From Corallococcus exiguus (lineage in GTDB: Bacteria; Myxococcota; Myxococcia; Myxococcales; Myxococcaceae), in the NCBI RefSeq assembly GCF_009909105.1, contig NZ_JAAAPK010000002.1:221827-285826 (forward strand): a DNA stretch of 64,000 nucleotides, given 5' to 3'. The position numbers and the translations under genes were made by a program. Positions 24,853-41,755 of this stretch are shown here, piece after piece (the stretch's first letter is position 1; each line of letters begins with the position of its first letter). The notes beneath the pieces are model-generated. The model was not told the origin of the DNA, did no database searches, and worked only from the letters and a program-made list of their open reading frames with translations.

Positions 24853-25365
24853 TCAGTTCTCGGCGTGGAGGGCCGGGGCCTTGGCGGTGGAGGAGGGTGG
24901 GGGCTTCGGGGCGGCGGGCGGTTCGGGCGGCTTCGCCGCGTCGTCGCCTTCCTTGGGGGCCGCAGGCTGGGTGCCCGTGCGGATGCGGCCTTCCAGCAGT
25001 TCGATTTCCAGGGAGCCGGGCGCGGGCGTGTTCACGAACTGCTGCCAGGTCCCGTCCGGGGCGGTGAAGAGGAACGACACCGCCACCGGCGTGTTGTCCG
25101 GCAGCGGCACCTTCATGCGCTGCAACCTGCCCGGATAGATGACCTCCGAGAGCAGCACGTCCGCGTCCGGCTGGAAGATGCGCGCGGACACCTCACCGTA
25201 GGACTCCACGGCGAACTGCTTCGGATCGACCTTGCGCACCAGCATGTACATCGGCCGGCCCTGGTTCGTCCCTGAGGGGGCCTTCACGCTCAGGTGCAGC
25301 GTGCTCGGCTGACACGCGGCCAGGAAACACAACGCCAGGGGGATGCAGCCTGCCCACGGTTTCAT
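24853..25365 (-). CDS. tssJ: TssJ-like type VI secretion outer-membrane lipoprotein
   Basis: 170 aa, lipoprotein signal (LALCFLAAC). Size and position immediately downstream of tssM with 4-nt overlap. Beta-rich body followed by a Pro/Ala-rich tail. Assigned by context and size more than motif. Confidence 0.5.
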   Translation of the reverse strand: MKPWAGCIPLALCFLAACQPSTLHLSVKAPSGTNQGRPMYMLVRKVDPKQFAVESYGEVSARIFQPDADVLLSEVIYPGRLQRMKVPLPDNTPVAVSFLFTAPDGTWQQFVNTPAPGSLEIELLEGRIRTGTQPAAPKEGDDAAKPPEPPAAPKPPPSSTAKAPALHAEN

Positions 25366-28300
25366 CGCGGCACCTCGCGGAACGGGATCCAGGGCTCACC
25401 CTTGAGCCCGACGCGCAGCTCCATCACCCCGTCCGGGGGCGTGGCGGCTCGCGCTCTCAACGACCACTTGCGGTGCTGCGGGTCTTCCGTGGCCTGGGAT
25501 GACTCCAGCAGCCGGAAGCAGCTCCACGCCGAACGCGACTTCTCCAGCGACGCGTACTGCACCGCCTGCTCCGTGGGCGCACGCAACTCCAGCATCAGCG
25601 ACGCCGTCTGCTGGTCCCACCACGCCAGCGGGAACTCCTGCCACGACGGACTCTGGTTGTACGCGAGGAACGTCGTCTTGCCGCACTTGAGCGAACCCAG
25701 CGTCACGAAGCTGCCCGGTACGGGCGCCTTCGGCAGCGGCAGCGGCATCACCTGCAACATCAGCGGCCGGGGCCTGCCCTCCGCGTCCCACAGCACGCGG
25801 GCCAGCCGCGACAGCTTCCCCAAGGAGGGCAACATCCCCTGCGGGAACGCCAGCCGCGACTGGAGCGCGCTTCGCGGTACCCACTCCGAGCCTCGCTCCT
25901 CGCACACCGGTGTCAGCACCCGAGTCACGAAGTCCCAGAAGGCTCCGTCGAGCCGGCGCAGCACCTCCAGGTCTTCCTGCGCCACCTCCTGCGACGCGTC
26001 CGGCGTGAACGGATAGTGCTTCAGCAGCGGACGCAGGAACCGGCCCGAGGCCTCGTCCCACTGCCGCTCCAGGGTTCGTTCAATCTCCCGCTGGCCCAGC
26101 TCGCGCACCGCGAGGAACGGCTGGCGGAAGGGCTGCCGCAGCTCTCCGATGAGCCCCTGCTGGTCCAGCCACGCGTCCACCTTGCGCAGGTAGGACGTGT
26201 CGTCCTCCATCATCATCGCGAAGGCCAGCCTCCCCAGCGGCGTGAGCAGCTCCTGGAGCTTCGCGGCCCCGCCGGCCGGCTGAGCGCTGCCAGTGGCCAG
26301 GCCTCCCGTGAGCGACGCTGTCGCCTCCGCGGGCACCATGCCCGGACGGGGCACCGCGTTCAGCTCGTCCGACATCTGGGCCACCAGCGCCCGGTAGGGG
26401 TTGAGCGCCGTGTAGTTGCCCGTCTCGTCCGGCTTCATCACCGTGGCGATGGGCTTGAAGGGCGCCACCGCGTTGCGCAGGGATTCGTAGAAGGGCCCCT
26501 CCAACGGCTCCAGCGCCACGCTCTGGGCGACGTCGCGCAGCATGTCCACCAGGTCCGAGGACGGCTGCGTGAGACGCGACAGCTCCTCCGCCAGGAGCGC
26601 GGGAATCACCGCCTGGAAGCGGTAGCCGCCCACGCGCTGGAACAGGCGGTTGCGGTACTGGACCGCGAACTGGTTCACCTTGCGGCGCACGTGCTCGTGG
26701 CGCTGCAACACCTCCTCCACCGGCAGCCCCGAACCCTTGATGCGCGTGGTGAACTCATCCACCAGCGGGCGCAACCGCGTGTCGAATTCCAGCCGGTCCG
26801 ATGCCAGGCTCGCGCCGCTCCGCGCCGCCACCGCCTCCTCGCCCTCCACCACGCCAAAGGGCATGCGCCCCGTCTTCTCGTGGTAGCGCAAGAGCGCCTG
26901 GTGCAGGAGCCGCGAGCTGTCCTTGGGCCGGAACTCGAAGGTGCTCTGGAGCACCGGGACCTGGAGCACCGAGGGGCCGTTGCCCGGCAGCCACAGGCCG
27001 TCGCGCACCAGCAGCTCCGCCACGTTCATCTTCTGAACCGCCTTCACGCCCAGGAAGGCCTCTTCCTCCATGCGCAGCACGTTCGTCAGCACTTCGCGGT
27101 GGTCGTTGATCCACGCCACCGTCCTGATGGTGGAGGGGATGCCCCGGAAGCGGCTGGTGTCCACTCGCGCCTCGGAGGCGGCCAGGAGCTCCAGCGCGCG
27201 CGGCAGACTGCTAAAGCGCGCGCTGTCATCCAGCAGCGTCTGGAGCCTCCGTCGCTCGTCCTGCATGGACTCCAGCTCCGCGTCCAGCTGCTCCAGCGCG
27301 CGCGGCTCCACGGCCCGGTTCGCCAGCAGGTCCTGCAACCGCCGCAGGTGCGCCTGCCACGGCATCAACTGGGACTCCTGCGTGAGCGGCTCCGGGTAGG
27401 GCCAGCGCGCCCAGCTGGCTTCGGGCGTGTCCGGCGCGGACCACGGCGGATTGCTCATGACGACGTAGTCGGCCACCAGGGAGTCGTTCAGCCCCACCGC
27501 CGTCACCCACGAGCGCCCTCCCTCCAACGCCGCCGCGTCCGCGGCAGGCTCCGCCGAGCCGTCCTCCGACACGAAGCCCCAGTTCGGACGCGTCTTCAGG
27601 CTGGACAGCACCAGTTGGCCCAGCGGCTCCTCGCGCGAACCGTGCAACGCGGCCAGCAGGTAGACGACCTGCTCCGGACGGCACGTGTCCGGCTGGCGGT
27701 GGCACTTCTCCAGGGCGGGCCGGATGTGGGCCTCGCGGATGCCTCGCGCCAGGCGTTGGCGCAGGTCCTCTCGCGCGTCGGTGAAGCTGTAGCGCAACAG
27801 CGGCCACGTGTTCATGGCCCGCCACAACGAGTCCAGAGAGTGGCCCGCGGCGACCACCGGTTCCTGCACCGCGGCCCCGGACACCTCCTGCCCCTGGTCG
27901 CGGATGCGCTGGACCATCTCCTCGAAGCGCTGCACGCGTGTGCGCGCCTGGCCCAGCCTCCACGCGAAGTGCCCGTACACGGCCAGGAGCGGCAGCGCGC
28001 ACGCCAGCCCCAGCAGCACCGCCCGGCGCAGGTGGATGTGCAGGTAGCGCTCGTGGACCGCTTTCGCCGTGCTGGCCTCGGCGGACACCGAGAGGACGTC
28101 AGGGTCCCTCGTGTCCTTGTCCGCGGACGACAGCGACACCGTGGCGAGCCGGGGCGCATACGCCAGCGTCTGGCCCTCCATCAGCGCCGTCACGAAGCGC
28201 GACAGCGCCTCGAAAGGGGCGTGGCCCTCCGAATAGAAGTGCTCCAGCCGTTCGAAGGACTCCACCGGAAGCGACGTGAGACCCAGCGCCAGGTAGTGCT

Positions 28301-41367: not shown

Positions 41368-41368
41368 G

Positions 41369-41755
41369 TCACTTCACCTGGGTCTTCGTCTGGGCGGTCA
41401 TGTTGATCTTGATCATGCCGCCATAGGCGCAGGTGCACGTGCACGTGTCGGTGAGCGCCGGCTTGCCCTTGATCACCACGGTGGGCGAGCCCGGCGTCCA
41501 CGGCGCGGGAATCACCGGCAGGCACGGCATGGGCGTGAGGACGCCCATCGCGGCGGCGGTGGCGGTGGCCACGGTGGGGTTCGCCATGGACTTGCACATG
41601 ACGAAGGGCGGCACGTTCATGCCCGGGACGTTGTCCATGATGGTGGCCGCCGGCGCGGTGGAGTTCACCTTGTTGGCGGGCAGCACCGACAGCGTCGAGG
41701 GCGCCATCCCGAAGCTGCACTGGAGCATGGCTCCGGACACGACCTGGATTCCCAT
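41369..41755 (-). CDS. PAAR-like DUF4280-family spike-tip protein
   Basis: Start at MGIQVVSGAMLQCSFGMAPSTLSVLPANKV (ATG 41755). ...PFVMC...PCLPVIPAPWTPGSPTVVIKGKPALTDTCTCTCAYGGMIKI... matches the DUF4280 (PAAR_like) pattern, including conserved Cys positions. Convergent with tssF (2-nt gap). Confidence 0.7.
   Translation of the reverse strand: MGIQVVSGAMLQCSFGMAPSTLSVLPANKVNSTAPAATIMDNVPGMNVPPFVMCKSMANPTVATATAAAMGVLTPMPCLPVIPAPWTPGSPTVVIKGKPALTDTCTCTCAYGGMIKINMTAQTKTQVK

Follow-up and report, generated by a model that had tools for sequence, protein, structure and literature searches.

Francisella's type VI secretion system (T6SS), classed as T6SS-ii, builds its tube from IglC and its spike from PdpA together with a VgrG of 164 amino acids, and its counterparts of TssJ, TssL and TssM are IglE, DotU and PdpB (PMC5924787; PMC5481754). 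Housekeeping ClpB, supplied in trans, replaces ClpV in this system (PMC5481754). Papers up to 2026 describe T6SS-ii as unique to Francisella (PMC12955703; PMC9600919), while one survey adds Dongshaea (PMC13098142), and work on the type has so far been confined to a Tier-1 pathogen. Our literature searches for systems resembling the Francisella pathogenicity island, PdpA or IglE outside Francisellaceae, or for Corallococcus or myxobacterial T6SS subtypes, returned nothing relevant. Here we analyse a 64-kb stretch of the Corallococcus exiguus genome (the window), of which positions 24853-41755 hold a T6SS locus. We propose, with a probability of roughly 80%, that this locus encodes a complete ClpV-less T6SS belonging to a lineage that is sister to Francisella T6SS-ii and shares its architecture.

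The initial annotation of the locus, made from the sequence alone, had listed the lack of ClpV and of a recognisable Hcp and the division of the spike over two genes as separate departures from T6SS-i, and had left their coexistence with a TssJLM-type membrane complex unexplained. Each of these features is a hallmark of T6SS-ii, and they therefore read as one signature rather than as three oddities; the puzzling combination is that of Francisella, whose markers are present here.

Parts of the locus

The GC content of the window is about 0.65-0.72. Since high GC yields many false open reading frames (ORFs), genes were called from a frame plot of GC at third codon positions (GC3) together with inspection of start codons. 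In the resulting map, minus-strand genes for an IglE-type lipoprotein, TssM, a 104-residue protein, DotU, a mini-VgrG and TssK diverge from a plus-strand tssB/tssC operon. The genes are as follows, with the cutoffs of the models in brackets.

24853-25365, minus strand: TssJ-equivalent outer-membrane lipoprotein of the IglE type; Pfam IglE_N 106.8 bits (26), 8e-31
25362-29063, minus strand: TssM/IcmF (PdpB-equivalent) inner-membrane core; Pfam IcmF_helical 29.5 bits (24.1), IcmF_C 22.6 bits
29067-29381, minus strand: conserved small protein of 104 residues between dotU and tssM; frame plot, GTGA overlap with the dotU stop
29378-30016, minus strand: TssL/DotU, short form with a C-terminal membrane anchor; Pfam DotU 60.1 bits, NCBIfam DotU/TssL-short, ATG at 30016
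30028-30606, minus strand: mini-VgrG of 192 residues, a beta-helix needle lacking the gp27/gp44 hub, of the Francisella VgrG type
30634-31887, minus strand: TssK, connector of baseplate and membrane complex; TIGR03353 318.7 bits (100), Pfam T6SS_VasE 127 bits
32197-32757, plus strand: TssB/IglA, small sheath subunit; TIGR03358 148.6 bits (97), Pfam T6SS_VipA
32808-34325, plus strand: TssC/IglB, large sheath subunit; TIGR03355 509.6 bits (271)
34358-35005, plus strand: HcpL1, 215 residues, probable inner-tube protein (IglC/Hcp equivalent) from a new family of about 200 residues, predicted to be all-beta
35068-35667, minus strand: HcpL2, paralogue of HcpL1 and second tube-like protein; BLASTP 3e-16 at 26% identity, frame plot
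35723-36709, plus strand: IglI-family protein, TssA-like; NCBIfam IglI_fam NF041244 230.2 bits (100)
36723-37667, plus strand: TssG (IglJ-equivalent) baseplate subunit; family profile matches TssG 6giy_C at 1.9e-6 and 6n38_G at 3.6e-6
37682-38068, plus strand: TssE (gp25-like) baseplate subunit; TIGR03357 2e-7, 30.7 bits (53, not reached), frame plot
38065-39696, plus strand: PdpA-like spike hub (gp27-like) of 543 residues, lacking a needle; profile search, AlphaFold2 model and Foldseek
39700-41367, plus strand: TssF (IglH-equivalent) baseplate subunit; Pfam T6SS_TssF 76.4 bits (25), TIGR03359 2e-23
41369-41755, minus strand: PAAR-like spike tip of 128 residues, DUF4280/IglG type; Pfam DUF4280 118.8 bits, NCBIfam T6SS_IglG 3.4e-12

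Matches to Pfam, NCBIfam and family profiles thus recovered every part of the T6SS core that the initial annotation had named, each at its place, and bore out the order tssG-tssE-hub-tssF. Four genes had been overlooked, namely the DUF4280 PAAR-like gene (41369-41755, minus strand), the 215-residue gene, its minus-strand paralogue and the 104-residue ORF. An apparent frameshift in dotU was resolved as two overlapping genes, dotU itself and the 104-residue ORF.

Both sheath subunits exceed the cutoffs of their equivalog models and form the VipA/VipB-type pair that any T6SS possesses, and the baseplate proteins TssE, TssF, TssG and TssK are all present, the TssE match lying below its cutoff. The best match of TssC in the PDB is Francisella IglB (3j9o_B, 423 bits), whereas the T6SS-i sheaths score less: 361 bits for Vibrio cholerae VipB, 347 for Myxococcus xanthus TssC (5urw, an entry confirmed to be this protein) and 336 for Pseudomonas aeruginosa. 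Of the TssB/TssC phylogeny that had been proposed for placing the subtype, the TssC part was built by neighbour joining. In this distance-based tree, with an IglB from a metagenome contig and plasmid-borne T6SS-i sequences, the Francisella-like IglB and 15 members of the family described below group together to the exclusion of 8 T6SS-i TssC proteins (79% bootstrap). The best PDB match and the neighbour-joining clade give moderate support to a grouping of the sheath with IglA/IglB. TssK matches a TssK structure (5y0e, 1.5e-9).

The membrane complex carries an IglE-family lipoprotein in the role of TssJ, as in T6SS-ii, with a lipobox (L-A-A-C) at residues 15-18. TssM matches TIGR03348 at 6.7e-15 and has transmembrane segments and a Walker A motif (GPAGAGKS). 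The 104-residue protein encoded next to it has tblastn matches of 36-48% in the corresponding place of loci from Myxococcaceae and Archangiaceae. A second T6SS-ii marker is the IglI-family protein. Its family profile matches an ImpA_N-like stretch of the T6SS protein 6rju_A (1.2e-3), which suggests a TssA-like role and agrees with the earlier call of this gene as tssA-like.

The spike has the two-piece form of T6SS-ii, a PdpA-like hub with a short VgrG. That the hub lacks a beta-helix, and that a separate beta-helix gene stands between tssK and dotU/tssL, had been read correctly at the outset; hub (543 residues) and needle (192 residues) are encoded on opposite strands. A hub profile of 32 homologues gave one meaningful PDB match, Francisella PdpA (6u9e_A, 1.9e-4). 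The AlphaFold2 model of the hub, with a mean predicted local distance difference test (pLDDT) score of 84.7, also had PdpA as its top Foldseek match (1.8e-26, template-modelling score 0.65), ahead of the PVC hubs and of the Afp8 and VgrG hubs, the latter two at 1e-19 or weaker. The mini-VgrG matches NCBIfam T6SS_TssI_Fran (3e-4) and Pfam DUF2345 (5e-5), and its profile, built from 25 homologues, matches VgrG beta-helices (8gra_I, 1.5e-5) and, over residues 14-164 and hence nearly its full length, Francisella VgrG (6u9e_B, 6.5e-5). For the PAAR-like tip, the probable ATG at 41755 overlaps the upstream stop, and the resulting length of 128 residues is that of its homologues.

Relatives, absent genes and the candidate tube protein

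A genome scan with the hub alignment yielded 184 loci, of which the best 80 were kept (labelled L001 onwards). Their hosts belong to Myxococcota (Corallococcus, Archangium, Myxococcus, Pyxidicoccus, Sorangium, Polyangium and Nannocystis), Desulfobacterota (Desulfobacteraceae, Syntrophus and Syntrophobacteraceae), Methylococcales (Methylobacter and Crenothrix) and Planctomycetota, including Ca. Uabimicrobium amorphum. The complete set of genes stays together, at 25-60% identity from Myxococcota to Methylococcales and Planctomycetota, and its commonest order is tssM-iglE-ANL-tssB-tssC-hcpL-tssK-tssE-pdpA-vgrG-tssF-dotU-tssG-iglI-PAAR; tssE adjoins the hub gene in most relatives. Several blocks are common to these loci and the Francisella island as listed in PMC5924787: tssB-tssC-X-tssK corresponds to iglA-B-C-D, tssM-iglE to pdpB-iglE and tssF-dotU to iglH-dotU, and iglI lies beside tssG/iglJ. 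The analysis shows what the parts of the system are, that they are conserved together and that they are related to those of Francisella.

The closest genome, that of C. coralloides KYC2213, is collinear with the window over 19.6 kb at 93.4% nucleotide identity. Amino-acid identities to it range from 79 to 97%, with most core parts at 92-97% and the lowest values (79-89%) for the PAAR-like protein, the mini-VgrG, the 104-residue ORF and IglI. That amino-acid identity mostly equals or exceeds nucleotide identity suggests purifying selection on the core parts. C. coralloides KYC2213 holds two systems of the family (L001 and L073), with no more than about 33% identity between their hubs; Myxococcus, Pyxidicoccus and Archangium commonly have the second type. 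C. terminator is represented by L046. The locus of Ca. Uabimicrobium amorphum, a planctomycete with a phagocytosis-like habit, lies at NZ_AP019860.1 7095628-7117220 (L079) and contains the hub, mini-VgrG, TssB, TssC, TssE, TssF, TssG, TssK, PAAR-like and ANL-like genes.

No ClpV and no Hcp was found among the GC3-supported ORFs of the 64-kb window in Pfam and NCBIfam scans, and a scan of all six frames for the two-Walker-A Clp motif was negative, in accordance with the absence noted initially for the locus and its flanks. Stretches with no supported ORF, such as 60634-63438, lie outside the profile scans and were covered for ClpV by the six-frame motif scan. Two candidates for ClpV or Hcp just beyond the locus were rejected: the 828-residue ORF at 44640-47126 is a PAS histidine kinase, and the 159-residue ORF at 47163-47642 is a DUF1622 protein. 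The cluster thus has neither the dedicated ClpV/TssH of T6SS-i nor its PF05638 Hcp and single-chain VgrG (the gp27+gp5 fusion).

The relatives agree, as none of the 80 loci contains an ATPase whose best match is ClpV. Four of them, from Planctomycetota, Methylococcaceae and two Desulfobacteraceae, have a ClpB-like gene embedded:

L025, 14855-17455: embedded ClpB-like gene
L047, 15121-17778: embedded ClpB-like gene
L060, 11669-14266: embedded ClpB-like gene
L065, 12329-15061: embedded ClpB-like gene

These four genes score 1080-1196 bits on the ClpB model and 755-812 on that of ClpV, ClpB being their best NCBIfam match, just below its cutoff. By analogy with Francisella, a ClpB-type unfoldase whose gene lies outside the window may recycle the sheath of this locus.

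The slot of the tube gene is occupied by HcpL1. The HcpL family comprises 227 cluster representatives (HMMER), and a member lies between tssC and tssK, the position of iglC, in every fetched locus that has both genes (about 48). Family members measure about 200 residues and IglC 211. We consider it quite likely that HcpL is the tube protein, because its position, its size, a beta-rich prediction and its universality all fit this role and no other candidate was found; the all-beta prediction comes from a low-confidence model. With a conserved family of about 200 residues filling the iglC slot, the system is probably not tube-less.

Several results weigh against this assignment. Neither sequence nor profile comparisons gave HcpL a significant similarity to IglC or to Hcp. 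HcpL1 has no match in Pfam, NCBIfam or the PDB, profile searches of the latter returning only spurious nanobody matches, and none of 87 HcpL family members carries a Pfam domain. PF11550 (IglC), present in 18 of 18 true Francisellaceae IglC matches, was not found in any of the 87 at E<=1, so that the IglC typical of T6SS-ii is missing. With hhalign, a comparison of HcpL with IglC alone gave nothing real; with an IglC alignment the match runs end to end over 172 columns but has a weak score (P 0.009, probability 4.5%), which 1 of 30 column-shuffled controls also reached. The AlphaFold2 model of HcpL1, computed from 9 sequences, is unusable (pLDDT 43) and its Foldseek matches are meaningless.

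HcpL2 is kept in the closest relatives (L001-L010). In the window, HcpL1 and HcpL2 are convergent; Archangium and Vitiosangium loci have this duplication too, with the copies in tandem. Long proteins with HcpL-like stretches were considered as "evolved Hcp" proteins and set aside, no toxin domains being seen in them.

One further gene, also missed by the initial annotation, accompanies the system and lies just beyond its 24853-41755 range:

41755-43437, minus strand: protein of 560 residues with a degenerate AMP-binding (ANL) fold; Pfam AMP-binding over the N-terminal part only

The catalytic motifs A3, A5, A8 and A10 are absent in 27 of 27 members of this family (loci L006-L079). The gene is nevertheless co-conserved with the T6SS, since most of the related loci, whatever their phylum, give a tblastn match, and it often adjoins the PAAR gene, as iglF adjoins iglG. 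Its product may be an IglF-like adaptor or cargo.

Placement of the system

If the parts work as their relatives do, the IglE-type lipoprotein, TssM and DotU would form an envelope-spanning complex, and TssK, TssE, TssF and TssG a baseplate around the two-piece spike. In the spike, a PdpA-like trimer would serve as the gp27-like hub, the 192-residue mini-VgrG as the beta-helix needle and the DUF4280 PAAR-like protein as the tip. The IglI/TssA-like protein would prime assembly, and the IglB-type TssB/TssC sheath would polymerise around a tube of HcpL1, possibly with HcpL2. Contraction would expel tube, spike and cargo, after which the contracted sheath would be taken apart for reuse by a ClpB-type unfoldase encoded elsewhere, not by ClpV.

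The likeness to the Francisella island is broad. It covers the complex of IglE-type lipoprotein, DotU and IcmF-like protein, the IglI-family protein, the IglB-like sheath, the PdpA-like hub with a mini-VgrG of about 170-200 residues, the DUF4280/IglG-type PAAR, the lack of ClpV and of a sequence-recognisable Hcp, and the common gene adjacencies. The two systems nevertheless differ. Here TssK, TssE, TssF and TssG are recognised by canonical models and a Walker A motif is present in TssM; the candidate for the tube is from another sequence family than IglC; the hub has 543 residues and PdpA 820; and an ANL-like gene, the 104-residue gene and a second tube paralogue are added. Hosts of the present family are environmental bacteria, free-living or predatory, and belong to several phyla, whereas Francisella is an intracellular pathogen.

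With canonical T6SS-i, as in V. cholerae, P. aeruginosa H1 or M. xanthus MXAN_4800-4813, the locus shares the TssB/TssC sheath, the TssE/F/G/K baseplate, the contractile mechanism, a TssJ/L/M-type membrane complex and a TssA-like ImpA_N region. It differs in having a DUF4280-type PAAR and an IglE-family protein instead of TssJ, and a sheath nearer to IglB than to any T6SS-i sheath tested, and in lacking ClpV/TssH, PF05638 Hcp and a single-chain VgrG. One could suppose that it is nonetheless an ordinary proteobacterial-type T6SS-i like that of M. xanthus, whose ClpV, Hcp and full VgrG are encoded elsewhere or mis-called. TssB, TssC and TssK do score above generic NCBIfam cutoffs, TssE, TssF, TssG, TssL and TssM are recognisable, and other bacteria commonly carry hcp and vgrG in orphan islands (PMC13098142). 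This supposition is largely refuted and we regard it as highly improbable, as the complement without ClpV and Hcp recurs in about 80 loci of four phyla, the Francisella-specific families IglE_N, IglI, PdpA and mini-VgrG are present, and a conserved protein fills the tube-gene slot. The initial annotation had granted that nearby ClpV and Hcp genes and collinearity with the M. xanthus cluster would make this a known locus; no such genes were found among the supported ORFs of the 64 kb, and TssC scores 423 bits to IglB against 347 to its M. xanthus counterpart. Three core genes missing by standard hidden Markov models (HMMs) might also point to a decaying, non-functional remnant from which ClpV, Hcp and the VgrG needle have disappeared. 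Such decay is scarcely tenable for a locus whose 17-19 ORFs are all intact with a strong coding signal in the GC3 frame plot, whose gene set is conserved across phyla, whose proteins are mostly at least as similar to those of the nearest genome as the DNA is, and which offers a plausible replacement for every missing function. Bacteroidota T6SS-iii shares the contractile TssB/TssC sheath and the occurrence of DUF4280-type PAAR proteins (PMC5014421), but has no TssJ/L/M homologues and uses five membrane-complex genes of its own (PMC10781749), whereas DotU, IcmF and IglE are present here. The PF04984 sheath and gp19 tube of extracellular contractile injection systems (T6SS-iv), which go without TssJLM and TssK, do not describe this locus either.

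A closer alternative is that the locus belongs to T6SS-ii itself, as an orthologue of the Francisella island moved by horizontal transfer. The Francisella-type markers and synteny blocks fit this well. The tube candidate without PF11550, the canonical-like rather than IglD-like TssK and the Walker A motif kept in TssM do not; nor do the ANL-like gene, the 104-residue gene and HcpL2, for which no counterpart in Francisella was recognised (IglF was not directly compared), and the TssC tree places IglB outside the 15 family members. Homologues of PdpC, PdpD, PdpE and AnmK were also not named among the NCBIfam matches of the window, a scan made without searches using the reference sequences. Taking these points together we judge membership in T6SS-ii proper unlikely and prefer a sister lineage. 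Some observations count against a close tie to Francisella and thus against the sister-lineage placement as well. TssK, TssB and TssC exceed the cutoffs of generic equivalog models trained on T6SS-i; TssK finds no IglD match in the PDB at E<=0.01, and TssF scores 16 bits on the IglH model (cutoff 75), so that the divergent IglD-type TssK and IglH/IglJ-type baseplate of T6SS-ii are not seen. Several of the Francisella-specific NCBIfam models are hit below their cutoffs: T6SS_IglE by the lipoprotein at 38 bits against 75 (1.6e-9), T6SS_TssI_Fran by the mini-VgrG at 21 against 100, and T6SS_IglG by the PAAR-like protein at 46 against 200. The TssC clade has just 79% support in a distance tree that includes a single T6SS-ii sequence and lacks a T6SS-iii outgroup, and no effector or target was identified for the locus.

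A broader proposition, which we advance tentatively and give a chance just short of even, is that Francisella T6SS-ii is a single, rapidly evolving branch of a large environmental lineage, so far undescribed, in Myxococcota, Desulfobacterota, Methylococcales and Planctomycetota. Were this so, the hallmarks of the lineage would be the split PdpA/mini-VgrG spike, the IglE lipoprotein, the IglI/TssA-like protein, the DUF4280 tip and ClpB-type recycling, along with a new tube-protein family and an obligatory, catalytically dead subunit of AMP-binding fold. The lineage would then bridge T6SS-i and T6SS-ii, and the Francisella baseplate and TssA equivalents would be identified by homology.

A broad and less diverged sister lineage in culturable, genetically tractable and non-pathogenic bacteria, Corallococcus and further myxobacteria among them, would make the split spike, IglI, the IglE complex and ClpV-independent recycling testable outside biosafety constraints. 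Its intermediate sequences would link IglH, IglJ and IglI to TssF, TssG and TssA, and it would add a candidate family of tube proteins together with a pseudo-enzyme subunit that is conserved. It would also suggest that predatory myxobacteria, syntrophs, methanotrophs and a phagocytosis-like planctomycete have a contact-dependent weapon so far unexplored. Databases partly cover the family, as the curated Pfam IglE_N and NCBIfam IglI_fam models already match such proteins, and surveys using T6SS-i/ii/iii HMM sets probably file these systems as incomplete T6SS-i.

Neighbouring genes

Between the two divergent operons lies a single region, inspected by sequence:

31888-32196, no strand assigned: divergent intergenic (promoter) region

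It contains no match to the sigma-54 -24/-12 consensus. A sigma-54 activator with a PocR sensor is encoded at 2451-4337 (minus strand), farther from the T6SS than the multi-PAS histidine kinase at 44640-47126 (minus strand), which stands beside the locus and is 73-88% conserved in close relatives. Between this kinase gene and the ANL-like gene lies one more ORF:

43434-44474, minus strand: protein of 346 residues whose N-terminus is hydrophobic and resembles a signal peptide; NCBIfam TraB-like match, weak (1.3e-5)

As its tblastn matches are confined to the closest relatives (L001-L010), its membership in the system is uncertain; it may be an accessory part.

On the other side, a minus-strand gene at 18994-24843 abuts the iglE-like gene and encodes a 1949-residue protein that has 16 choice-of-anchor-D repeats and carries a MYXO-CTERM sorting signal. 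Weak relatives of this protein (27-30%) occur within 10 kb of paralogous systems in Archangium and Pyxidicoccus, by association or by chance. Farther out, positions 13400-19000 have a lower GC (0.59-0.62, against about 0.70) and hold unannotatable ORFs together with a class-3 lipase/alpha-beta hydrolase at 17228-18970. This segment may be acquired DNA, or the lipase may be a candidate effector.

About 3 kb from the T6SS, a separate plus-strand locus at 47787-64000 is of the extracellular contractile-injection or phage-tail-like type and does fit T6SS-iv. The following genes were identified in it:

49624-52107, plus strand: phage-type sheath
52671-53186, plus strand: gp19 tube
54141-55019, plus strand: CIS_tube
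55020-56495, plus strand: GPD hub
56380-60633, plus strand: baseplate-J protein of 1417 residues
from 63439, plus strand: Tail_P2_I

Two different contractile machines, the T6SS and this extracellular type, thus adjoin in the window.

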